Assembly: GCA_050943595.1 (NCBI GenBank)
Contig: JBMNPM010000007.1
Coordinates: forward strand, 6,288 to 70,287
Length of the DNA stretch: 64,000 bases
Source of the DNA: Thermoleophilia bacterium
Lineage (GTDB): Bacteria; Actinomycetota; Thermoleophilia; RBG-16-64-13
Reading direction: 5' to 3'
The notes under the pieces are model-generated. The model searched no databases. It was not told the origin of the DNA and worked only from the letters and a program-made list of their open reading frames with translations. Positions 13,027 through 39,644 of this stretch are shown here, in pieces. How positions within the stretch are numbered: the stretch's first letter is position 1; each line of letters starts with the position of its first letter. The position numbers and the translations under genes are program-made.

Positions 13027-13066
13027 AAAAAAATGGCGCCCTTGGGAATATCATCCCAAGAGCGCC
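13027..13066 (-). terminator. Rho-independent terminator (riboswitch expression platform).
   Basis: Minus-strand GGCGCUCUUGGGA-loop-UCCCAAGGGCGCC followed by U7. Confidence 0.7.
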
Positions 13067-13127
13067 GTATTCTGCCCTAGTCACCTAGTACCACACCCCT
13101 GATCTCGAGGGTATGCTTAGCCTCTCG

Positions 13128-13290
13128 CCTACGGGTAGGTATTCTGGCTCCCGGATCACTCTACCGGCTGCGCCTTCCCATCCCTGCGGACAGTGGCATC
13201 AGCAGCCTTCGTCCCCGATCACAGCGGCGGCACCGCGACGGACTCTCACCGTCTTCCCTTGTGGCTGTATTCCAGCCACCCGTAGCCACG
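13128..13290 (-). ncRNA. Cobalamin (AdoCbl) riboswitch.
   Basis: Minus-strand transcript contains AAGGGAAGACGGUGAGAGUCCGUCGCGGUGCCGCCGCUGUGA, B12 box GCCACUG, GGGAAGGC and AGCCAGAAUACCUACC. P1 CUACGGGUGG/CCACCCGUAG. Followed by a terminator. Confidence 0.85.
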
Positions 13291-13386
13291 CGTATTATTA
13301 ACATGCGGTCTGCAGTGCGTCAATATTCCACGCGCCCCCAGCCGCTCCATGAAAATATGAATCCGCCCGGCAGGCGCATAGGGTAG

Positions 13387-27752: not shown

Positions 27753-28399
27753 GAAATAAAATCTCCTTCTGTGTGTGAGGCCAATGTCGATGACTGGGCA
27801 CACCACGGGTGCGGTGGTGTAACCGCGTTATGGATTTCCAAGAACGATTCGGCAGGAACAAGCGTTCGGATTTCTCCGATGTCCTGCGAAGAGAGAAGCG
27901 ACCTATCCCAAGTGACCCGGAATTCGTGCTCAATTCCGCTCTGGGCTATGAGGCTGATGCTCTCGCGTATAGGGACTTCCATCCCTTTTACTCCTGCCAC
28001 AAGATCATATTTGTCAAGTGGAGCTTTGATATCCATAGCTATGTAGGACAACAAACCCTGGGATAGCAGTTGCCTGAGAAGCTCCGGCCTGCTCCCATTC
28101 GTGTCCAGTTTGATATCAAAACCAAGCGCACGAATCAGATGGAGAAAGCGAGGTAGATCCTCCTGCAGAGTAGGCTCTCCACCACTCACAGTCACACCCC
28201 CCAGCCTTCCGACTCGTGTCTCCAGGCGGGCAAGTATGTTGCTTTCGTGCAGAAAGTTGTTGTGATGCGAGTGTCGTGGGATGAGTTGCCGATTGTGGCA
28301 GTAGGGACAACAAAAATTACAGCCCTGAACGAATATCACAGCGGCCACTCGACCGGGGAAGTCGGTGAGAGAGAAGGGGAGGAATCCGCCGATGTTCAT
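27746..28399 (-). CDS. nrdG: Anaerobic ribonucleotide reductase activating protein NrdG (radical SAM).
   Basis: FVQGCNFCCPYCHN radical-SAM cluster motif. Stop/start coupled to nrdD. Confidence 0.85.
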   Translation of the reverse strand: MNIGGFLPFSLTDFPGRVAAVIFVQGCNFCCPYCHNRQLIPRHSHHNNFLHESNILARLETRVGRLGGVTVSGGEPTLQEDLPRFLHLIRALGFDIKLDTNGSRPELLRQLLSQGLLSYIAMDIKAPLDKYDLVAGVKGMEVPIRESISLIAQSGIEHEFRVTWDRSLLSSQDIGEIRTLVPAESFLEIHNAVTPPHPWCAQSSTLASHTEGDFISC

Positions 28400-30600
28400 C
28401 TCTTTTGCCCAATCACATACTCTCTTCGTTTCAGAAACTCAGCCTGTTTTCCATCATTCCACTGACTCACAGGACGCAGATATCCCACTACTCGCGAGTA
28501 GACTTCCGTTGTCTTTCCGCACTGGGGGCAAACGGATTGTTCACCCACTAGATAACCGTGGTCAGCACAAATAGAGAAGGTGGGCGATATCGTGAAATAC
28601 GGAAGAGAATATTCTTGGCACACCGTGCGCACGAAAGCCTTGACTGCTCCGGGGTCGGGTGAAGCCTCTCCCAGAAAGACATGGAAGACCGTTCCCCCTG
28701 TATAGCGTCGCTGAAGGCCGTCCTGCAGGTCGAGAGCGGTGAATACGTCGCCACAGTAGTCCACAGGCAATTGGGTAGAGTTTGTGTAGAGAGCCGGACC
28801 TGTATCGATCTGAGAATCCGTCGGGTCTTGAGGTAACGATAGACCCAGCTTCTTCACCAACACCGCATCAAGACAAGCCAGCCGATGACCGGCACTCTCA
28901 GCCGGAGTAGCTTCAAGGTTGTAGAGATGACCGGTGTCTCGCTGGAAGCCGGCAAGCCGGTAGCGCATGTGGTCAAGTACTCGAGCTGCAAAAGCGAGGC
29001 CATTAGGTGTGCCGATGTCTGCGTCCAGCAGGTTGAGGCAGGCTTCGTTCATGCCAACGAGCCCAATTGTGGAGAAGTGATTATGCCAATAGCACCCGTG
29101 ACGCTCTTTGGCATCGCGAAGATAGAATTTGGAGTAGGGATAAAGATTGGCTTCCGTGTACTGCTCGAGCACCTTGCGTTTGATATCTAGGCTGGACCTG
29201 GCAATATCCATCAGCCGGTCCAGACGCCAAAGAAAATCCTCCTCGTCGTCGGCCAGAAGAGCAATTCTGGGCATGTTGATTGTGACTACCCCGATGGAGC
29301 CGGTAAGAGGATTCGCTCCGAATAGTCCCCCGCCTCGACGCTCGAGTGCGCGAAGGTCGAGACGGAGACGGCAACACATGGAACGAGCGTCATCGGGAGA
29401 CATGTCGGAATTGACGAAATTAGCGAAGTACGGGATGCCGTAGCGAGCGGTTGCCCGCCACAGTCCCTCCAAATGAGGGTTGTCCCAGTCGAAATCCGGG
29501 GTGATGGAATAGGTGGGGATGGGAAAGGTAAATGCCCGGCCTCGAGCATCTCCTTCAGCCAACACTTCCACTAGAGCCTGGTTGAACTGGTCCATTTCCG
29601 CCTGAAACTCACCGTAGGTTTCTTCCTGAAGTTCTCCTCCAATGATGACCGGCCGGCTGCGGAGCCCCTCCGGCGGGCGCAGATCCAGAGAGATGTTCGT
29701 GAAAGGAGTCTGGAAGCCCACACGAGTAGGCACGTTTAGATTGAACACGAATTCCTGAAGAGCCTGCTTGGTATCCGAGTATGTGAGACCGTCATATCGG
29801 ATGAAGGGCGCAAGGAGAGTGTCAAGGCTGGAAAACGCCTGCGCCCCCGCGGCCTCACCCTGGAGGGTGTAGAAGAAGTTGGCCACCTGCCCGAGGGCAG
29901 TGCGCAGGTGCCTGGCAGGACGACTCTCCGCCTTGCCGGCCACCCCCCGGAAACCCTCTCGCAGAAGATCCTCAAGGTCCCAGCCTACACAGTACGGAGC
30001 AAGAGTACCCAAGTCGTGCAGGTGAAGGTCACCCGACTCGTGGGCCTCTCTAATCTCCGAGGAGTAGAGCTTGTTCAGCCAGTAGACCCTGCTGACCTCG
30101 CTGGACACATAATTGTTGAGACCCTGTAAGGAGAAAGCCATGTTGCTGTTCTCCTTAACTTGCCAGTCGAGTTTGTCCAAATAGTTATCGACGAGATCAA
30201 GGTCGGCCTTCTGCGTCAGATCTCGTACGCGGGCGCGCTGGTCCCGGTAAACAATGTAGGCTTTAGCAGTCTTCTTGTAGGGGGAGGCAAGCAATACCTC
30301 TTCGACCAAGTCCTGGACCCCCTCCACCGTGGGAGTCTCACCCCCCAGCATGTCTCGAGCCAATAGAACTACTCGGGTTGAGAGGAACTTCGCAACGTCT
30401 CCATTGTCTTCACTGAACTCTCCGGTGGCCTTGCCCGCCCGGAGTATCGCTGAGGTGATCTTGGCTGTGTCAAAAGGAACCAGCCGCCCGTCTCGTTTGC
30501 GTATCTCGGAGAACGCAGGTAAGTGATGTATCTCCGCCCGAGAGGGCGCACAGGCCGGCAGATCATTGCAGGTTGGGTCCGATGTACCAAATGCCGTCAT
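28396..30600 (-). CDS. nrdD: Anaerobic ribonucleoside-triphosphate reductase NrdD (class III) with N-terminal ATP-cone.
   Basis: ATP-cone (VPFDTAKITSAILRAG); C-terminal Zn-ribbon CPQCG + glycyl-radical region RVVGYL. RBS GGAGAAGG before ATG 30600. Confidence 0.9.
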   Translation of the reverse strand: MTAFGTSDPTCNDLPACAPSRAEIHHLPAFSEIRKRDGRLVPFDTAKITSAILRAGKATGEFSEDNGDVAKFLSTRVVLLARDMLGGETPTVEGVQDLVEEVLLASPYKKTAKAYIVYRDQRARVRDLTQKADLDLVDNYLDKLDWQVKENSNMAFSLQGLNNYVSSEVSRVYWLNKLYSSEIREAHESGDLHLHDLGTLAPYCVGWDLEDLLREGFRGVAGKAESRPARHLRTALGQVANFFYTLQGEAAGAQAFSSLDTLLAPFIRYDGLTYSDTKQALQEFVFNLNVPTRVGFQTPFTNISLDLRPPEGLRSRPVIIGGELQEETYGEFQAEMDQFNQALVEVLAEGDARGRAFTFPIPTYSITPDFDWDNPHLEGLWRATARYGIPYFANFVNSDMSPDDARSMCCRLRLDLRALERRGGGLFGANPLTGSIGVVTINMPRIALLADDEEDFLWRLDRLMDIARSSLDIKRKVLEQYTEANLYPYSKFYLRDAKERHGCYWHNHFSTIGLVGMNEACLNLLDADIGTPNGLAFAARVLDHMRYRLAGFQRDTGHLYNLEATPAESAGHRLACLDAVLVKKLGLSLPQDPTDSQIDTGPALYTNSTQLPVDYCGDVFTALDLQDGLQRRYTGGTVFHVFLGEASPDPGAVKAFVRTVCQEYSLPYFTISPTFSICADHGYLVGEQSVCPQCGKTTEVYSRVVGYLRPVSQWNDGKQAEFLKRREYVIGQKR

Positions 30601-30734
30601 AGCCTTCTCCGTCGTTGTGGAGGCAGAGGCGGGAAGGCCAGGGGTAAACCAAGCTCCCAGGGCACTAGGAACCAGGACACCAGTGAGCCGACCGCCTCTC
30701 TCCCTCGAAGTTGCGGTAGCAGTGCATACTCTCG

Positions 30735-30915
30735 GCCGGTCTTCGGGCTTGTAGGCAGATCCGTCGTGAGACGAGGGGTTCTACTGGTCATCGCTTCCCA
30801 GCCCTAGTTGAGCCAGTGCTTAACTGATGACTTTCGTTCCTACTTACCGCTGCGGGGCAGCTCCGGAATTGCACCGGATTCCCGTGTGAATTGTGAAGCG
30901 TAGGCCACAAATCAC
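30735..30915 (-). ncRNA. Candidate cobalamin riboswitch (divergent variant) in the nrdD 5' leader.
   Basis: Minus-strand transcript contains GGGAAUCCGGUGCAAUUCCGGAGCUGCCCCGCAGCGGUAA (the GGGAA..CGGUG.AA.UCCG...CCCGC...GUAA core), AGCACUGG (B12-box-like), GGGAAGCG and CGGAUCUGCCUAC. A possible anti-RBS (GCCUUCC) lies before the GGAGAAGG RBS. Confidence 0.5.
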
Positions 30916-31178
30916 GCCGACAGCCATTACAGTTTATCCAGGCAAAGGGAGGGCAGTCAAGTATCGGAGGGCGGTTCGAAAAGCGGTCAAGTATCCGTTG
31001 TGGGGAATCCGTTATGGGAGATGCTCAGGCCGGCAACCCTTAGGCGACGCCGTCGGCCTCCACGCGCAACGGCGATCAACACGCATTGGAACAATTCGTC
31101 GCGCTCCGTCGCGCTCGTCAGGTGAGAGGGTTTGAGTAGCCGGGGAAGGCTCAGCTAGAAACAAATCTTGGAGAGTAA

Positions 31179-34100
31179 TTAGTTAGGGCTCCTATATGCT
31201 TCTTTATCAAGGAATTCTTCCAGCGCTTCTGGTAACAGAGGCCTTGAAAAATAGTACCCTTGTATTTCATCGCAAGCTATGTTTCTCAGAAAATCCACCT
31301 GCTCCTTTGTTTCCACACCTTCTGCTGTAATATCCGCCATGAGAGTTCTGGCCAACGAAATAATTGTCTCCACTATAGCAGCTTTCTTTTCCTTTAAATA
31401 GATATCATCTATGATACTTTTATCTATCTTTATTCTGTCAAACGGTATCGATTCCAGCCTATGTAATGATGAGTACCCCTTACCAAAATCATCTAACGCA
31501 ATGCCTACTCCCAGCTCTTTTAGGCTAGATAGTTTTTCAATTACATCCTCAGGATGTTCAGAGAATACGCTTTCTGTAATCTCCAACTCAATATACTTTG
31601 GGTCTACACGATTTCTACCTATAATTTCTGCAAAATCAAGAATGAGATCTTCTACTTGTAGTTGCACAATAGACAGGTTTACAGAAAAACGAAGAGGTGG
31701 AAATCCTCTTAAAATAAGTCTCTTGTGCTCTTGTAGTGTCTGCTCAAACACCCAGAGCCCCACATCATAAATCAATCCAGTTTGCTCTAGTATGGATATA
31801 AATCTATCCGGTGATACTCTTTTATTCCCATCAATAGTCCATCTGAGTAAGGCTTCAGCCCCGACGGTTTTTCCTGTGTCACAACTAACCTGAGGCTGAA
31901 ACTCCAGAAAAAACTCTTTATTCTGCAGTGACCGGAAAAGCCGGTTTGTGAAAAGAGTATTTTCAGCAATATGCTCTTCCAATTTCTTACTATAGAAAAC
32001 AATATCTTTACTCGTATTTTTCGCTTGAAATCCTGCCATGTCGGCATTCTTCAAAAGAGTATATGCATCCTTTCCATCATCTGGATACACAGATATACCT
32101 ATGTGGATAACAGCAAAGAGTGCTTCTACTCCTGTGTCCGCAACTACGGGATGAGAGAAAGAATCAATCAGAGTCTGTGCGCAATTCTCTACCTGCTTAG
32201 TATCTTCTACAGTAGGCAGAACAATAGCAAACTCTCCTTCAGATGACCGTGAGATATCGCAACATTCCTCCAGTAGATTCTCGATCATTGTTGCAGATTT
32301 TATTACTATCTGCTCACCTATACTATGACCAAAGGTATCTTTGATAATCCTCAGATTATCTATTTCAATACTTAATACTGCTAATTTTCCTGAATCTCTT
32401 CTGCTATATATTCTTTGATCCAGTACCTGTATCAACCTATTCTTATTTGCCAATTTTGTATCTTCATCGAAATAAGCAAAATTATACAGTTTTTCTTCAT
32501 CTAGGATCTTTCTCTTCGCATCTCCCAGTATGTTCGCTATAAGGCTTAAGAAGTATGCTTGACTCTCTCTGAGCTTTTCGTCAATCTTACTATACTGTTC
32601 AACGACAAGCACTCCTATTATATTTTCATCAAGCTCTATTGGCAACATATAATAGGAATTTATTCCTCTTGATGTGAAGAATTTTCCTTCATCCCCATCT
32701 TCATCAACGAAAACATTTTTGATGTCTTCGCATGATATAGGTTGTTTATGCTCAATCATAGATTCAACCGTGGGGAAAGCCGCAGCTTCAACCTTCACAC
32801 CCGGGGGGAAAGGAAGTGATTTAGTAGATCCATCCGCCGTATACGCATCAATAATCATTGCATATTCGTAATCCCAACCTAACTCAACCAAATATATTTG
32901 ATCAATTTTAAGTATTTCAGCAGTTGATTTTAGCATTCCACTGATTTTTGCTTTTATATTTTCATTATCAACCGAAATAAAGGAGCTTGAAATTTTTTCA
33001 AGCACTTCGTGTTCTTTCGCAAATCTTTGATATCCTTTTAACTTTGAATCATATTCAGTTGTCAAATATCGGACAAGAACATAAGAAAGTACAACAATAA
33101 CTATTCTTTTCAGATACTGAGTATCATCGATAACGGTATAAGCTTTCGGATGAGTTATCCAAAGAATAACTTGACTTATCAGAGTTATTCCTAAAAAGAG
33201 TAGTGTGTGGATTCTGCTATTAAGAATAATTGTATATAAAAGAAACACTACATATACTGCCCATATTGTTACTCCTCCAATATCAGCATCTCTAATTATG
33301 AAAAAAGACATGCCAACTATGCTTACTACAAGGAATAGAGTGTTCTGAATGTTGTCTTTTGCTGATATATAAGGTATAAATATTAAAAATGCACCTATAA
33401 CTATCACAGTCAAAGCGAGTGGAAGTTCATTTGCCAAACTCCCACTCGCAGTAAAGTATCCTAAAAAGAAGGACCCTGCCCCACCTGCCATAAATATTAC
33501 TGCTGCCGTCTGAAACAAACGCAATCGGCCTTTTTCTAGAGCAATGGTGGAGCCCATAGGCGAATATGTTGCCCTGGGTTTTTCAATAATAAAGCCGAAT
33601 TTCTTCAAGGTTTGAAATAAGACTATTGTGGGAAAGATTAAAAGTATAAGCGTAATTCTAGGAGTTTGGTATAACCCCAATGCACCGGGTAAAATATCAT
33701 TTATTGTTCCCACAACGAGGGGAAGCATTATGGCTATTAAAAAGTACTGCACTTGTCGCTTCATAGGGTTTTGAGGATCAAGTTTTTTCCACCAACGAAT
33801 AATTAATATAACCGCAGCGACTGTATATACAATGTAGTAAAAATTAATCCATATTTGCCCAATATTTGCGGGAAGAGAATTTCTCCATCCAAAATCGCTC
33901 GGTACCATTTCATATTGGTTCTCTGCTAAATACCCAAAGGGTGCAAACAGGAATATATTTATGAAAGTGGGAAAATAGACAATTATAAAGTTTTTAAAAT
34001 TGTTTACTTGATGTTTATTATTTGTTAGTATCAACGCAAAGTGAAGTAACAGGTTGTGGAAGATTCCCCATCCAAAAACAGAGAGGCACCTCCAAAAAGC

Positions 34101-34292
34101 ACTCGATTCCGCCGTCATTGCTGAGTTTGAAATAGAGTACGTGAATGCCCAAATTGCCATTGAGCTTGTTAATAACATAAATAGCCTATTGGTACTGCTT
34201 TTTATGTTGGAAACTATAGCATAGGGACCAAAGAGCATGTAAAAACAAGCGCAAGCATAGTACACAGCAGACATAATTAAGCTGTATTTCAT
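31179..34292 (-). CDS. Multi-TM sensor - GAF - degenerate GGDEF (SEGEF) - EAL c-di-GMP phosphodiesterase.
   Basis: ~12 TM N-terminal region, GAF-like segment, GGDEF-like domain with degenerate motif, intact EAL (EAL, DDFG(K/T)GYSS, QGY). Extremely AT-rich (~33% GC). Confidence 0.8.
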   Translation of the reverse strand: MKYSLIMSAVYYACACFYMLFGPYAIVSNIKSSTNRLFMLLTSSMAIWAFTYSISNSAMTAESSAFWRCLSVFGWGIFHNLLLHFALILTNNKHQVNNFKNFIIVYFPTFINIFLFAPFGYLAENQYEMVPSDFGWRNSLPANIGQIWINFYYIVYTVAAVILIIRWWKKLDPQNPMKRQVQYFLIAIMLPLVVGTINDILPGALGLYQTPRITLILLIFPTIVLFQTLKKFGFIIEKPRATYSPMGSTIALEKGRLRLFQTAAVIFMAGGAGSFFLGYFTASGSLANELPLALTVIVIGAFLIFIPYISAKDNIQNTLFLVVSIVGMSFFIIRDADIGGVTIWAVYVVFLLYTIILNSRIHTLLFLGITLISQVILWITHPKAYTVIDDTQYLKRIVIVVLSYVLVRYLTTEYDSKLKGYQRFAKEHEVLEKISSSFISVDNENIKAKISGMLKSTAEILKIDQIYLVELGWDYEYAMIIDAYTADGSTKSLPFPPGVKVEAAAFPTVESMIEHKQPISCEDIKNVFVDEDGDEGKFFTSRGINSYYMLPIELDENIIGVLVVEQYSKIDEKLRESQAYFLSLIANILGDAKRKILDEEKLYNFAYFDEDTKLANKNRLIQVLDQRIYSRRDSGKLAVLSIEIDNLRIIKDTFGHSIGEQIVIKSATMIENLLEECCDISRSSEGEFAIVLPTVEDTKQVENCAQTLIDSFSHPVVADTGVEALFAVIHIGISVYPDDGKDAYTLLKNADMAGFQAKNTSKDIVFYSKKLEEHIAENTLFTNRLFRSLQNKEFFLEFQPQVSCDTGKTVGAEALLRWTIDGNKRVSPDRFISILEQTGLIYDVGLWVFEQTLQEHKRLILRGFPPLRFSVNLSIVQLQVEDLILDFAEIIGRNRVDPKYIELEITESVFSEHPEDVIEKLSSLKELGVGIALDDFGKGYSSLHRLESIPFDRIKIDKSIIDDIYLKEKKAAIVETIISLARTLMADITAEGVETKEQVDFLRNIACDEIQGYYFSRPLLPEALEEFLDKEAYRSPN

Positions 34293-34519
34293 AAGTTCAT
34301 CTCTAAAGAATAAGGAGCCTGAACTACTAAAGAAGGATCACGTCCCGGCAAGTAGAGTGGAGGCTGTGGCGATGAACGATGCAGGCTGGAAGGGGTATTC
34401 CCTCCCAGGAGACTTTCAGTTTCCTCGTTTGAGGTCTCCCCCTTTGGTTCATATCGAAACCGGCTCCACCCTGAGCTTTCGCAGGCACAGCAGGTCGAAG
34501 GCAGAGTAGCTTCAGGTGA

Positions 34520-34900
34520 AGATGGCCTTAACCCGGGTATGCCCGGATGACGCAGCCCGTGTAGTTCGCCCCAGCCCTTCATCCAGCCAAAGGGCTGCTC
34601 CACCGGCCTACGTGAGTGCCGGCAGAGGAGGTGCTCACGAGAGAGGAGTCGACGGGGCTCGGCCCGGCCGCGCACGCACTCAAAGAACACCTCCGTCACC
34701 TCCCTACAGAACAACCGATCTCGATTGCGGCTGAAGGTGAAGATATGGCCCCACTCGGCACAGAGGTTGCCACGCAGAGGGCTCATCGCAGACAGCGCCT
34801 GGTTCACCATACGACGGATGAAGCGTAGCGGGTAGTCGGCCGGCACCCGATCATCGAGCGAAGCCAGCATGACCATGTTCTCCTGCCACCCTCCATCTCC
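34520..34900 (-). mobile_element. N-terminal remnant of an IS5/IS1182-family transposase (DUF772 region), internally deleted.
   Basis: DRVPADYPLRFIRRMVNQ...WGHIFTFSRNRDRLFCREVTEVFFECV resembles the InsH N-terminal domain (DHSTFSKNRDRL...FFAEV). No DDE domain. Lies between the two AT-rich GGDEF genes. Confidence 0.45.
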
Positions 34901-35241
34901 CCGCATCGCACTCTCCTTAGCCGTGATATGCAAAGAAAAGGCTATTTGAAGAGATATTCTACCCTGAACACCCCTCATAGGAGACAAGGGGGCCGGCGCA
35001 AATGATTTTCTACTAAAGCCAGGATGGCCCAGGAGCAAGCGGATTAACCCGGGACCATTGCACAGGTGGGAAGAGACGGGTGCAACTCAGATGCTGGACA
35101 CAAGAAGACGTAGACACAAGGGTGGGAGTGTGTTGGTGCTCGCCGCGAGCGTGATCGTGGTGCTAGTGCGACGCGCCGGCCCCAACCATAGTGAGGATCA
35201 AAGGCGACAAACTTACCAGCATTACTATGCTATCGACATAT

Positions 35242-36393
35242 CTAACGATATATCACCCTGTCTCTCCCCTCTCCTTTAGCCAAATAGAGGTTTGTGTCCG
35301 CAGCTTCCAGAAATTCAGAGTAAGAGATGCCCTTTACATAACTACTGAGTCCACCGGAAAGTGTTACCGGCTTACCGTGGCTCCATGCATGCGCCCTCAC
35401 CCGATCGCAAAGTGCCTGCACTATGGGCAGTGCTTCCATCGCAGTTTTGCCCGGCGAAAGCACCACAAACTCCTCTCCGCCATATCGACCGAAGATCTCT
35501 TCTTCTGTCAGACTGTCCCTCATGATCTGCGCAATATTGATTAGAACATTGTCACCATACTCGTGCCCATATGTATCATTTATTTCCTTAAAATAGTCGA
35601 TATCCAATATGCAAACCGTCAATTGCGATCCCGTATCGTACGACCGGCGCATTTCCTCGTCGATGCTCGCTGATAAGAAGCGGCGATTGTATAGGCCGGT
35701 CAGGGCATCGGTCTGTGAGATATGCTCCAAGCGGTTTACCAATCTCATCTTTTCATTATGCAACTTCGTATACGCATTCATAACCCTGTAAACTAAAATA
35801 GAACTAACCACTATACACATGGCATAGGTAAACACCAGATCCTCAAACTGTTCTTCACGGCCGGAATACGGTATAATGATATCCGGATAATGATATTCCA
35901 GCACGACAAATACAATCGACATTATCGATAATGCAGACAGCATACCAATGCGTACTGCTCCTTTGAAAACGAAAGCTACGCACAAAGCTCCCACGAGCAG
36001 TACAGGACCAGTGGAGCCGGTCGCCCCACCAATCGTGAACCATAGAAAAGGAATCAGAAGAAAAACAGAGGAGCCTACAACAATAAGGGCAGATCTATAC
36101 CAGCGCTTTGTGACTATACTATATATAGCGCATGAGATGTTCATCAAGATGTACAACACGTATACCGGCAATATAAGTATGCCTAGATCATTCAATATAT
36201 TATAGCCGATTCCGATCATGACCATAAGAAGACCGGCAGCGGCAGTGTATAGAAAAATATTGTGCTCTAGAGGCAAATCTTTAGTGTCAAAAAACTGAAG
36301 AACTCTTTTAAGCAAACTCATCCTTGTTGTTTTTACGGCGGTATTTTCTTCATTATCAGGTGCTCTCTTTAAGTTAGCTTGTAATAACATCAC
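35242..36393 (-). CDS. Membrane (6-7 TM) sensor diguanylate cyclase (GGDEF, motif GGEEF, no I-site).
   Basis: TM N-terminal half, then TDALTGLYNRR...GRYGGEEFVVL. AT-rich (~38% GC). Confidence 0.8.
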   Translation of the reverse strand: MMLLQANLKRAPDNEENTAVKTTRMSLLKRVLQFFDTKDLPLEHNIFLYTAAAGLLMVMIGIGYNILNDLGILILPVYVLYILMNISCAIYSIVTKRWYRSALIVVGSSVFLLIPFLWFTIGGATGSTGPVLLVGALCVAFVFKGAVRIGMLSALSIMSIVFVVLEYHYPDIIIPYSGREEQFEDLVFTYAMCIVVSSILVYRVMNAYTKLHNEKMRLVNRLEHISQTDALTGLYNRRFLSASIDEEMRRSYDTGSQLTVCILDIDYFKEINDTYGHEYGDNVLINIAQIMRDSLTEEEIFGRYGGEEFVVLSPGKTAMEALPIVQALCDRVRAHAWSHGKPVTLSGGLSSYVKGISYSEFLEAADTNLYLAKGEGRDRVIYR

Positions 36394-36680
36394 TTCTCCA
36401 TTGTCAAGATCACTTTCCTTAGGAAAAGGGGCAACAGCCGGTGGTCATTATCTTACTATCTGAACTGTCTTGGATTCAGTGGAGAATCATATAAGTAGCC
36501 GCATTCATTAAGACAATACAAGCAGATTCTTGCGTGGTGATCTGCTCGCAAGACGGATTGGTATTCCGATCTTAGTACATCTAGACAGAACTCACTCGAG
36601 GCTCGCTTGTTGAGCCCCTGGTGTCTATTCCACACGGTGTAGAAATCGAAGCGGGGCGGAAGTTCTCGACAGACCTCAGT

Positions 36681-36830
36681 GATGTTCTCGCTTCCCTTAA
36701 GATGCACTCCCTCGTACTCCACGCTTATCCACGCTTATCCACGCTTCTCGATGCTTTTCTACGCTTCTCGACGATTATCCACGATTCTCGACGATTATCA
36801 ACGGTTGTCGTTCGACAAATATATTGTCGA
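36681..36830. repeat. Array of ~12 head-to-tail decamers (NACGNTTNTC), including 4 DnaA-box-like 9-mers TTATCCACG/TTATCAACG, followed by an AT-rich near-palindrome.
   Basis: TTATCCACG at 36725, 36735, 36775; TTATCAACG at 36805; related TTCTCGACG/TTTTCTACG units at 10-bp phasing. Then GACAAATATATTGTCGATATTGTC. Confidence 0.6.
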
Positions 36831-37050
36831 TATTGTCGTCATCATTCGATGAAAACATTATCGGCCCGGAGCCCAAGTCGTCCATGCTGGTGGCGATGTC
36901 GCGAGAGTGGAGAGATCGGTTAAGTCCTCAGGGGTGGATAAGAGGTGGAGCGATGTGTCAGCGTCCTATGCTGGAAGACGCGCCCCTTGGGCGGCACTTA
37001 TCCGGCATAATACGGTGTAGTGGGCGCACGTAGCCTTCAAGGGAGGACCA

Positions 37051-37629
37051 ATGGTCAAGAAGAACATTGGCAAGAATTTCGATATCTGCCCGATGCCCGT
37101 AGTCATAGTGGGCACGCTCGTCGACGACAAACCAAACTTCATGACGGTCGCCTGGATCACCAAGCTCAGTTTCAACCCGCCCCTAGTGGGCATCTCGGTG
37201 GGCGCCAAGCAGCACTCCGTCAAAGGCATTCGCCAGAACGGAGAGTTCAGCGTGAACTACCCTAGCGTGAACGAAATGGAGTTGGCCGACTACTGCGGGC
37301 TCGTACACGGGTACGATGAGGACAAGACCGGCCACATCGACATCTTCCAAGGAACCCTCACCCACGCGCCTATGGTGCGCCAATGCCCTGTCAACCTGGA
37401 ATGCCGTCTCATACAGACCGTCGACCTAGGCGAGCAGTTCTTCTTCATCGGTGAGGTGGCCCACATGTATGCCAGTGAAAGGATCCTCAGCGACGACCAG
37501 GTGGACCTGGCCAAGTTCAGTCCATTCGTGCTGACCATGCCGGGTAACTCCTATCGGCCATTGGGCGAGCACATCGGTGATGCTTGGAGCATCGGCCGAA
37601 AACTCATGGAACAGCCTGCTGATTCATGA
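37051..37629 (+). CDS. Flavin reductase-like domain protein (FMN-binding split barrel).
   Basis: PF01613-like pattern (ICPMPVVIVGT...FMTVAWIT...VGISV). AAGGGAGG RBS. Confidence 0.65.
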   Translation: MVKKNIGKNFDICPMPVVIVGTLVDDKPNFMTVAWITKLSFNPPLVGISVGAKQHSVKGIRQNGEFSVNYPSVNEMELADYCGLVHGYDEDKTGHIDIFQGTLTHAPMVRQCPVNLECRLIQTVDLGEQFFFIGEVAHMYASERILSDDQVDLAKFSPFVLTMPGNSYRPLGEHIGDAWSIGRKLMEQPADS

Positions 37630-37759
37630 GTTGGCTCGGAAACTAACGTAACAGCGCGACCCGCACACAGATGATGTTGACAGGCTGAGGTGAAGCCGCG
37701 CACGGGCACGGCTTCACCTCAGCCATAGGCGCAGCTCGTCGCTCACGAGAAGAGAGACA

Positions 37760-38644
37760 TCACCACCCACGATGCTGGACAAGATCCTCACGCTGCAGAG
37801 AGCCGATCTCCAGGCCTGGCATGGCCTCCCCCAATCCGCGCGACACACGGGCCAGGATGCTGGGGTCCTGATAGTGGGTAGTAGCCTCAACGATGGCCTT
37901 AGCCCGTTGCTTGGGATCTGCACTTTTGAAGATTCCTGAACCGACGAAGATACCGTCGGCACCCAACTGCATCATGAGCGCTGCATCCGCAGGCGTGGCT
38001 ATCCCTCCGGCCGAGAAATTGACCACAGGTAGTCTCCCATTTTTGGCCACCCAGGCGACCAGTTCGTAGGGGGCCTGCATGTCTTTGGCCGCCCGGAAGA
38101 GCTCGTCCTCATCCATACCGGCCAAAGCGCGGACTTGGTCTGTAATGGCCCGCATGTGTCGGACCGCCTCGACCACGTTGCCGGTGCCCGCCTCTCCCTT
38201 GGTGCGGACCATGGCGGCCCCCTCGGTGATCCGTCTCAGAGCCTCCCCCAGGTTGAGCGCTCCACAGACGAAGGGCACCTTGAATTTCCACTTATTGATG
38301 TGGTGAGCATCATCGGCCGGCGTGAGCACTTCGCTTTCGTCGATGTAGTCAACGTCCAGGGCCTCGAGTATCTGGGCCTCCACAAAGTGACCGATGCGTG
38401 CTTTGGCCATGACGGGGATGCCGACCGCCTGCCGGATCTCCACTATTTTCTCGGGGTCGGCCATACGCGCCACCCCACCTTCCTTACGTATGTCGGCCGG
38501 AACGCGCTCCAGCGCCATGACGGCGCAAGCGCCTGCTTCCTCAGCCAGACGCGCCTGATCAGCCGTGGTGACATCCATGATGACCCCGCCCTTGAGCATC
38601 TCCGCGAGGCCCATCTTGACTCTGGGTGTTCCCTCTTCTTTCAT
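37760..38644 (-). CDS. pdxS: Pyridoxal 5'-phosphate synthase lyase subunit PdxS.
   Basis: [41 protein letters not shown]... The PdxS sequence is highly conserved. No pdxT adjacent. Confidence 0.9.
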
Positions 38645-38711
38645 TGCCGCCCTTTCGCTTAACCTTTAGACGCATCGCTATCAATCTTGCAGATTGAAGG
38701 AGTGCGGCATC

Positions 38712-38736
38712 AAAAAAAGCGTCCATCAGGACGCCC
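38712..38736 (-). terminator. Intrinsic terminator 68 nt upstream of the pdxS start codon (leader attenuator?).
   Basis: Minus strand GGGCGUCC-UGAU-GGACGC followed by U7. Confidence 0.55.
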
Positions 38737-39260
38737 AAATGGTAGAGGTAGACTCGCTTCCCTCCGCTGGCATCACCCTGCTCAGAATCGCAGGATCAGT
38801 GGCCGGACCATACTCTTGACAACGGCGCTCCCAGCCGCAAGAACCTTACCACGCCTGCCGCGACGCTGCCACCTTACAATACCCCGCTGGCACCCGGTCG
38901 CGACCCCACGAGGAACGGCTGCCTTCACGCACCATCCCCGCAGCCCCTAGGGGGATTCCCGAAGAGCTGAGCCACCCCGAATCCTGCCACCAGGTACACC
39001 GATACAGCCGATACAGCCACAGGAGCTCCATGAATCAAGAACTTCTTGTCCGGTTTTGACTTCTCCGCACCACCGTCATGGGTCACACCCCACACCTTAC
39101 CTCCATACCCACGCGCCCCCTCTGTCCGGCAGGCTCACTTGTATCAGACGGTGACTTGTATCAGACGGTGGGGTATTCGGGCAGTCCACGCAGGGATAGA
39201 CCATAATGTCTATAGTTGATTGAGTCGCAACCAGATCCGAGGCACAGAAAAGGACAGGGC

Positions 39261-39644
39261 ATGCGCGGTCTTCTCACTCGCTGGGCAATCACCGCGGCAG
39301 CAGTGGCTGTGGCTGCCTGGCTGGTACCCGGCATCTACGTGGAAGAGCCTCACCGCATCTGGACGGTCGTGCTCGTGGCACTCGTTTTAGGCTTAGTCAA
39401 CGCCCTCATCCGTCCTTTCGTCTCCGTCTTGACGTGCGGTCTCACCGTACTGACACTTGGCCTATTCACACTGGTGATCAATGCTCTCATGCTCTGGCTG
39501 GCCTCGTGGATCGCCGCTGAGGGCCTAGGGCTGGGTTTCCATGTCGACGGCTTCTGGAACGCCCTGCTGGGCTCTATCATCATCAGCATCGTCTCTTTCA
39601 TCGCCAGCACCTTTGTACGCGACAGACACTCCAGGAGAAGGTGA
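39261..39644 (+). CDS. DUF360 / phage-holin-4_2 family 4-TM membrane protein (YvlD-like).
   Basis: Characteristic sequence (VVLVALVLGLVNALIRPF...LTLGLFTLVINALML). Start ATG 39261 with AAGGA RBS. Confidence 0.65.
   Translation: MRGLLTRWAITAAAVAVAAWLVPGIYVEEPHRIWTVVLVALVLGLVNALIRPFVSVLTCGLTVLTLGLFTLVINALMLWLASWIAAEGLGLGFHVDGFWNALLGSIIISIVSFIASTFVRDRHSRRR

Follow-up and report, generated by a model that had tools for sequence, protein, structure and literature searches.

What controls the transcription of a vitamin-B6 synthase gene that stands without an adjoining pdxT behind several hundred nucleotides (nt) devoid of genes? The question is raised by a stretch of 64,000 nt from an uncultured Thermoleophilia bacterium (the window; GC content roughly 60%), in which pdxS, encoding the lyase subunit of pyridoxal 5'-phosphate (PLP) synthase, is divergent from the gene of a DUF360 membrane protein. 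A first-pass annotation of the letters alone had described the region between the two genes as a ~400-nt leader with an intrinsic terminator, arranged as in a transcription-attenuation riboswitch or a T-box-like leader, and had proposed repeats further upstream as binding sites of a PLP-responsive regulator. The reading favoured here, to which we assign a probability of about 45%, is that the functional element is a lineage-restricted, ~190-nt conditional transcription attenuator of riboswitch type, extending from ~38836 to 38645 on the minus strand. The leader is possibly derived from a thiamine pyrophosphate (TPP) riboswitch, as its sequence suggests.

37760-38644, minus strand: pdxS, PLP synthase lyase subunit (Pfam SOR_SNZ, E=5.6e-109)
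39261-39644, plus strand: divergent gene for a DUF360/Phage_holin_4_2 membrane protein, ATG at 39261 (Pfam, E=4.4e-34); a protein 100% identical to its product carries the name 'MAG: Thermoleophilia bacterium'

How much of the intergenic region is functional? A PdxS search found a sole diverged relative, locus L081 (Logan SRR11702766), with the same gene order and a PdxS 96% identical to that of the window; since the leaders of two more contigs (L124 and L125) do not differ from that of the window, the comparison is one of two alleles. The four-fold degenerate sites of the three flanking genes (pdxS, DUF360 and a flavin reductase gene) served as neutral yardstick. Divergence between window and L081 is distributed as follows:

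Four-fold degenerate sites: 50/311 (16.1%)
38645-38848, leader block: 13/204 (6.4%; binomial p=2.3e-5 against the four-fold sites)
38849-38885: 21.6%
38886-39030: 133 of 145 nt missing from L081 (a 133-nt indel)
39031-39136: 27%
5' region of DUF360: 13.6%

Upstream of 38850 the two alleles differ by 22-33% and by large indels. The terminator-containing stretch 38848-38645 is, on this comparison, under purifying selection, and since it alone is conserved the constrained unit is the proximal ~200 nt and not 400-570 nt. Of the long leader described earlier, the proximal ~190 nt are thus retained, conserved and containing the terminator, whereas the distal half is indel-ridden, decaying DNA with the relic of a transporter gene. 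Constraint is not confined to the terminator: the structured domain of ~100 nt on its 5' side has 6/108 substitutions (5.6%, against 16% neutral) and the spacer from terminator to ATG has 4/65. The claim that the region 5' of pdxS is free of open reading frames (ORFs) was borne out, no convincing ORF being found up to the DUF360 ATG at 39261.

The conserved block and its upstream edge contain the following elements, all on the minus strand:

38843-38872: putative promoter GTGGCA-N18-(TGg)TAAGGT (GTGGCA at 38872-38867, TGgTAAGGT at 38848-38843), by motif reading
38742-38842: structured leader domain with sub-threshold likeness to the TPP aptamer (Rfam RF00059)
38782-38811: mini-ORF of nine codons, AUG..UGA (MVRPLILRF), perhaps for a leader peptide (low confidence), by sequence reading
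38769-38774: candidate antiterminator strand GAUGCC, inferred to pair with GGCGUC (38735-38730) in the terminator 5' arm
38736-38712: intrinsic terminator GGGCGUCC / UGAU / GGACGC + U7 (in DNA GGGCGTCC-TGAT-GGACGC + T7), by hairpin scan
38681-38697: small spacer hairpin UCAAUCU-GCA-AGAUUGA, between terminator and ATG
38650-38655: Shine-Dalgarno-like AAAGGG, 5 nt before the pdxS ATG and identical in L081
38635-38653: start-codon region that is complementary to 38719-38701 (U-tract plus GAUGCCGCACU); such a helix could act by translational sequestration

The hairpin with U7 that had been noticed between the leader and the ribosome-binding site of pdxS is indeed there, at 38736-38712. Its GC-rich stem of 6-8 bp has a free energy of -12.8 kcal/mol and is retained in L081 at -11.2 kcal/mol, where a loop U has become G and a stem U-A pair U-G. 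In the 64 kb, the minus strand has only three runs of at least seven U, the pdxS-leader U7 being one of them and the terminator directly 3' of a cobalamin riboswitch (13117-13298) another. From the U-tract to the pdxS ATG it is about 65-67 nt. Since neither allele has a -10-like TAnnnT hexamer in this interval, transcription of pdxS must read through the terminator. Upstream, the promoter candidate is the sole TAnnnT hexamer preceding the leader that combines an extended TG with a -35 box matching at four of six positions. It adjoins the edge of the conserved block, and L081 keeps both boxes with a varying spacer between them. A transcription start near 38836, and with it a 5' untranslated region of ~190 nt, would follow from this placement. 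The generic layout of an attenuator, a GC-rich hairpin with a U-tract between promoter and start codon, is present, the promoter being putative.

Promoter-like boxes, a conserved stretch of ~125 nt and a strong terminator are also the layout of an independent small RNA gene (promoter 38872-38843, terminator 38712) that has nothing to do with pdxS and from which pdxS is read incidentally. This is quite improbable for several reasons: 1) the 65-nt spacer is conserved no less than the rest, right up to the ATG (4/65); 2) pdxS would be left without a promoter of its own; 3) the sequence following the terminator is complementary to the pdxS start region, which is relevant only in cis on read-through transcripts; 4) the window holds no second copy of the leader element and no target-like match.

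How could the conserved leader act as an attenuator? Briefly, all pdxS transcripts would pass through a leader that consists, in this order, of a weak promoter, a structured domain of ~100 nt, the intrinsic terminator and a spacer of ~65 nt. In the proposed ON fold GAUGCC (38774-38769) would pair with the 5' arm of the terminator and RNA polymerase would read through; in the OFF fold GAUGCC would be held in the upstream domain, so that the terminator could form and pdxS would be off. To hold the antiterminator strand within the aptamer is the usual logic of OFF riboswitches. In the folding model, GAUGCC:GGCGUC is the minimum-free-energy pairing when the RNA ends before the 3' arm of the terminator (duplex -10 kcal/mol), and in a TPP-like fold the GAUGCC nucleotides lie in L5/P5. 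Candidate ligands would be a phosphorylated B6 vitamer (PLP) or TPP. We infer the alternative folds, any ligand dependence, the identity of the ligand, the promoter and the start site. The 5' end of the spacer and the U-tract may in addition pair across the start codon. This start-codon duplex, inverted repeat I2 with 17/19 pairs and -17.7 kcal/mol, appears in the minimum-free-energy fold of the full-length leader and has zero variation between the alleles; the complementarity between U-tract and start codon suggests a second, translational layer of control. As a separate observation, UGCCGCA just 3' of the U-tract (38702-38708, minus strand) can pair with either of two partners, UGCGGC (38834-38839) where the transcript is predicted to begin or GCGGCA (38645-38650) at the start codon, a three-way competition that could couple the fold of the leader to translation, the pairings being 6-mers that are statistically not distinctive.

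It could also be imagined that a translating ribosome decides between the folds. A ribosome that reaches the UGA of the mini-ORF MVRPLILRF (38811-38782) would cover GAUGCC and block the antiterminator, and a ribosome that stalls earlier would allow read-through. Indeed, ~8 nt separate the stop codon from the candidate antiterminator strand that follows it, and both L081 substitutions within the nine codons (38806 and 38785) are synonymous third-position changes, albeit two out of two would be synonymous by chance ~6% of the time. Moreover, 9/13 leader substitutions share the codon phase of AUG 38811, eight of them being synonymous in that frame (three times the binomial p ~0.03, by hand). Five stop codons follow in phase beyond the ORF, indicating that the periodicity does not come from a longer coding region, and it is probably due to chance. 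As in addition the Shine-Dalgarno-like AAGAG ends 1 nt before the AUG, a poor spacing, and the peptide has no link to B6, ribosome-mediated attenuation is considered very improbable.

Is the structured domain that would sense a ligand related to a known riboswitch? An Rfam scan, which the first-pass annotation had proposed as a check, covered 38400-39500 on both strands at E<=10 and gave one weak match, to TPP (RF00059), below threshold, and none to the T-box family. TPP is the sole riboswitch family matched in both alleles (20.1 bits in the window, 19.0 bits in L081). Rescaled to the TPP family alone over the 64-kb window, the E-value would be ~0.005 by our own arithmetic; Rfam-wide the match is at chance level. 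An nhmmer search with the leader aligned 38798-38754 without gaps to positions 1132-1088 of a Dehalococcoidia/Chloroflexota pdxS locus (L073) with 32/45 identities, the sole sub-threshold match among 83 loci, and the target falls within a bona fide TPP riboswitch (71 bits), in its P4/P5 half. The 18-mer GAUGCCAGCGGAGGGAAG is identical in two other real TPP riboswitches (69-72 bits). In the leader, P2 (GGGA/UCCU) and P4/P5, the pyrophosphate-sensor half (GCG..AGGGA), are recognisable. The likeness to a TPP riboswitch (THI element) extends to 1) length (101 nt against a model of 105 positions) and order of elements; 2) a fully paired P2; 3) the P4/P5 region UCUGAGCAGGGUGAUGCCAGCGGAGGGAAG, which matches the consensus; 4) a terminator within 6 nt of the domain, the 3' part of which can pair with the terminator 5' arm; 5) a position upstream of a vitamin-synthesis gene, albeit that gene is pdxS and not a thiamine gene. 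The leader differs in having neither P3a nor the J3-2 UGAGA T-loop, the pyrimidine sensor by which the aminopyrimidine ring is bound. In the TPP alignment P1, P3, P4 and P5 each contain non-canonical pairs (one each in P4 and P5), and the P4/P5 motif CUGA..GCG.AGGGA is present but a competing hairpin, AUCCUGC/GCAGGGU, is thermodynamically preferred. An alternative alignment by eye, which took CAAGAG for a mutated UGAGA, was rejected because it leaves no P3 helix.

With a score below the gathering cut-off, no UGAGA T-loop and pdxS as downstream gene instead of one for thiamine, the pdxS leader is not a member of the TPP family. Its descent from a TPP riboswitch is plausible, as judged from the sequence, and the selective constraint that the two alleles reveal contradicts the idea of a TPP relic that has simply decayed and lost its function. 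Published TPP variants have an altered pyrophosphate core and bind thiamin (PMC5473149); they are altered in the half opposite to that altered in the pdxS leader. It could be imagined that the ~100-nt domain is a neofunctionalised descendant of a TPP riboswitch that kept the Mg2+/phosphate-binding P4/P5 arm, remodelled the heterocycle pocket, senses PLP or another phosphorylated B6 vitamer and terminates pdxS; we regard this more specific proposal as a long shot.

Could the leader instead belong to another known RNA system? The suggestion of a T-box did not stand. The motif thought to be T-box-like, AAGGUGGCAGCGUCGCGG (38875-38858), carries four substitutions in L081, and neither strand has a T-box match in the Rfam scan. 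T-box leaders (RF00230), like the pdxS leader, are long and end in an intrinsic terminator, and real ones in the fetched loci score 103-128 bits. The candidate was rejected on further grounds: the motif is in the promoter zone, where conservation is poor, ~120 nt from the terminator on its 5' side, and does not form its antiterminator, and pdxS is the wrong class of downstream gene, being neither an aminoacyl-tRNA synthetase nor an amino-acid gene. Of the two arrangements that had been proposed, attenuation of riboswitch type is the one favoured by the terminator, the constraint and the missing -10 box after the terminator. The T-box leaders in three Firmicutes loci (L012 4005-4212, L035 2148-2375, L040 4099-4316; 103-128 bits), which served as positive controls for the model, are immediately 3' of pdxS-pdxT and for this reason control the next gene and not pdxS.

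A system closer at hand is a cobalamin riboswitch in the window (13298-13027, minus strand), which like the pdxS leader has a promoter, an aptamer domain, a GC-rich hairpin, U7 and a spacer before the regulated gene. Since this riboswitch (13117-13298) ends in such a terminator, the organism uses expression platforms of the aptamer-hairpin-U7 kind. It differs from the pdxS leader in an aptamer of 105 bits and a strong TTGACG-N17-TAATAA promoter, whereas the pdxS leader has no family above threshold and a weak promoter. The window contains two bona fide cobalamin riboswitches, both on the minus strand and both with clear TTGAC-N17/18-TAnnnT promoters just upstream. The one at 13027-13298 (105 bits) is followed by the hairpin GGCGCUCUUGGGA...UCCCAAGGGCGCC with U7 and precedes B12-transport-type genes (Peripla_BP_2); the other, at 30717-30936 (89 bits), is followed by nrdD (28396-30600), which encodes a class III ribonucleotide reductase. 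Bona fide TPP riboswitches were seen in three pdxS loci of Dehalococcoidia/Chloroflexota (L053 1386-1486, L055 428-533 and L073 1076-1176, all three on the minus strand). They are 1-2 kb upstream of pdxS in opposite orientation, in each case with rsmG/gidB between riboswitch and pdxS, and that of L053 precedes thiC; these are a matter of neighbourhood only and not of pdxS regulation.

Several observations weigh against a conditional switch. The promoter candidate is weak and is not called by a stricter sigma-70 scan. The TPP match has 20.1 bits and E=0.33 against a gathering cut-off of 54.3 bits, real TPP riboswitches in the fetched loci having 65-85 bits, and in both alleles 3 nt (CAC) stand in place of 17 positions of the TPP model, among them the J3-2 UGAGA. 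In single-sequence folding the leader does not exceed shuffled sequences in stability (z between -0.9 and +1.1). A compensatory double change is seen in none of the pairs, two alleles being all that can be compared. Five substitutions between window and L081 fall into stems, of which one opens a loop-closing pair and four keep pairing, in the terminator, in the spacer hairpin (38695 A>G, turning A-U into G-U) and in two other predicted stems; given the transition bias, four of five is not significant. Furthermore, a homologous leader was not found in 86 other pdxS loci, and in seven PdxS relatives (85-88% identical) the region 5' of pdxS is short, 8-145 nt. Nor did a leader homologue emerge when metagenomes were scanned with GATGCCAGCGGAGGGAAG, the 18-mer of the leader that most resembles TPP riboswitches, albeit the coverage of this collection is incomplete, as L125, a JGI contig with the exact sequence, was not returned.

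Some of these points would equally suit a constitutive, leaky terminator or insulator that damps or blocks transcription coming from the decaying upstream or divergent promoter region. In such a case pdxS would be kept at a fixed low level by read-through or by an atypical promoter in the spacer, and the leader would be kept for stability or translation of the mRNA and not for sensing. The lack of covariation and ligand evidence, folds no more stable than shuffles, the weak upstream promoter (weaker than those of both cobalamin riboswitches in the window) and a rearranged locus with a transporter relic, an orphan pdxS and an adjacent low-GC island speak for such an insulator. The 100 nt 5' of the terminator, however, show the same degree of constraint as the hairpin (5.6% against 16% neutral), which a plain insulator would not need, and conserved -35/-10-like boxes stand at the edge of the conserved block; as to a spacer promoter, a TAnnnT box is missing there in both alleles. 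We therefore consider an insulator unlikely. That the leader is a lineage-restricted candidate attenuator for pdxS is credible on the combined evidence of constraint and architecture; that it is an RNA switch is plausible but unproven.

How did pdxS come to have such a leader? An nhmmer search against 83-86 pdxS loci retrieved only L081 in addition to the weak match to the TPP riboswitch of L073, and a scan of genome contigs with PdxS reached no more than 78% identity, the upstream regions being dissimilar. The combination of a hairpin and U-run near pdxS with the GCG.AGGGA motif occurs only in window and L081. The metagenome scan with GATGCCAGCGGAGGGAAG returned 29 matches, of which two are real TPP riboswitches and the rest coincidences in coding regions. 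In 80 GTDB loci an Rfam scan at gathering thresholds found the region 5' of pdxS free of known riboswitches on the pdxS strand; the TPP, S-adenosylmethionine (SAM) and T-box matches belong to neighbouring genes, and the recurrent upstream k-mers are -10 boxes at -45 to -110. In the seven PdxS relatives, pdxS is as a rule preceded by futalosine (mqn) genes and followed by pdxT, and four of the seven have in common the exact 12-mer GATGTATCATAT, which is not in the window leader. This 12-mer is found at L082 2400-2411, L083 2458-2469, L091 1853-1864 and L092 1430-1441, that is 32-99 nt upstream of pdxS in pdxS-pdxT loci of the Thermoleophilia type; the intergenic regions around it are otherwise dissimilar, and it may be a promoter or operator that belonged to the ancestral arrangement.

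The pdxS gene of the window is an orphan: pdxT does not adjoin it, and neither tblastn with two PdxT proteins nor a Pfam scan of ORFs detected pdxT in the 64 kb. Among the 86 other pdxS loci pdxT is present in 73 and missing within the locus in 13, and an orphan pdxS is not unique to the lineage of the window. No pdxT is called after pdxS in L126 / L127 (P0011 relative) either, where PdxS is 87% identical and stands in mqn context. On the basis of these comparisons, pdxS was evidently relocated in the lineage of the window, lost its neighbour pdxT and gained a new 5' region. A block of low GC content (31000-37700; 0.36-0.52 against ~0.60 elsewhere) with GGDEF/EAL signalling genes stands beside the flavin reductase-pdxS pair and suggests that the neighbourhood was rearranged or horizontally acquired.

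What, then, is the distal half of the region, in which the supposed regulator sites are located? It contains three features:

38952-39035, minus strand: relic of an ancestral major facilitator superfamily (MFS) transporter gene, by tblastn/blastn against L089
39137-39170: perfect tandem of the 17-mer ACTTGTATCAGACGGTG, two copies, by repeat scan
39196-39213: palindrome ATAGAC-CATAAT-GTCTAT in the DUF360 promoter region, where it overlaps -10-like boxes (CATAAT, TATAGT)

Window positions 39035-38952 encode IHGAPVAVSAVSVYLVAGFGVAQLFGNP, which is 61% identical over 28 amino acids to residues 259-283 of the MFS protein of L089 (tblastn, E=1e-3 against the whole window), and the DNA is 73.5% identical over 68 nt and colinear with the start of DUF360 (blastn). 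In the loci L084-L090, whose DUF360 is ~73% identical, the gene divergent from DUF360 is an intact MFS transporter and not pdxS, and the same holds generally for DUF360 relatives at 73-78% identity. The relic is exactly the segment deleted in L081. Judging from these alignments, the distal half is decaying pseudogene DNA and lies outside the functional leader. A 56-residue ORF (38925-39095) that gene callers annotated in L124 and L125 is a remnant of the MFS transporter; the 9-bp tandem TACAGCCGA (2.8 copies, 38995-39018) is inside it.

Known regulation of pdxS is protein-based, through PdxR, and regulators of the MocR family use direct and inverted repeats. A PLP-responsive regulator of this type binding to the tandem 17-mers, the palindrome or both would then control pdxS, and the 17-mer is in fact perfectly duplicated, although at 39137-39170 and not at 39147-39182 as first given, and the palindrome is where it had been placed. 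Target pathway and repeats in a divergent intergenic region agree with PdxR control of pdxST. The differences are that the divergent gene encodes the DUF360 membrane protein and not PdxR, that the repeats are unconserved and that pdxT is absent. In L081 the 17-mer is single (15/17 positions match) and one arm of the palindrome is mutated (39210 G>A), and the surrounding DNA diverges at or above the neutral rate. A palindrome of this kind is at chance level, 1.4 perfect 6+6 inverted repeats with a spacer of 0-10 nt being expected in the 616-nt region. Moreover, the repeats are ~300 nt upstream of the predicted promoter, beyond the pseudogene relic; neither motif recurs in the window; the relatives carry a different conserved box, GATGTATCATAT; and none of the 20 ORFs scanned with Pfam, which include all of 380-550 amino acids in the window, encodes a MocR-type protein (GntR plus aminotransferase domains). 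The search for pdxT and pdxR that had been suggested thus found neither within the 64 kb, and the idea that such a regulator acts at these sites is very hard to maintain. The attenuator reading ranks above this and the other three explanations (insulator, small RNA gene and leader peptide).

These negative results matter in themselves, since they remove the reason to follow up the repeats and the palindrome as PdxR operators and allow the idea of a T-box to be given up. Full-text literature searches yielded no RNA motif associated with pdxS or PLP, and pdx, pyridoxal and PLP go unmentioned in the surveys of non-coding RNA discovery that were examined. Among near-universal coenzymes PLP is one of few for which no riboswitch is known, and it is listed explicitly among the coenzymes without a validated riboswitch class (Kavita and Breaker, 2022; PMC10043782). 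The pdxS leader is a concrete and cheap candidate for in vitro work because it is constrained, contains a terminator, must be read through and has the phosphate-sensor half of a TPP aptamer. If true, a PLP-sensing descendant of a TPP riboswitch would be the first riboswitch for PLP. If the leader is only a fixed attenuator, it would still illustrate clearly how a biosynthetic gene, relocated next to a transporter gene in decay, acquired a new 5' region.

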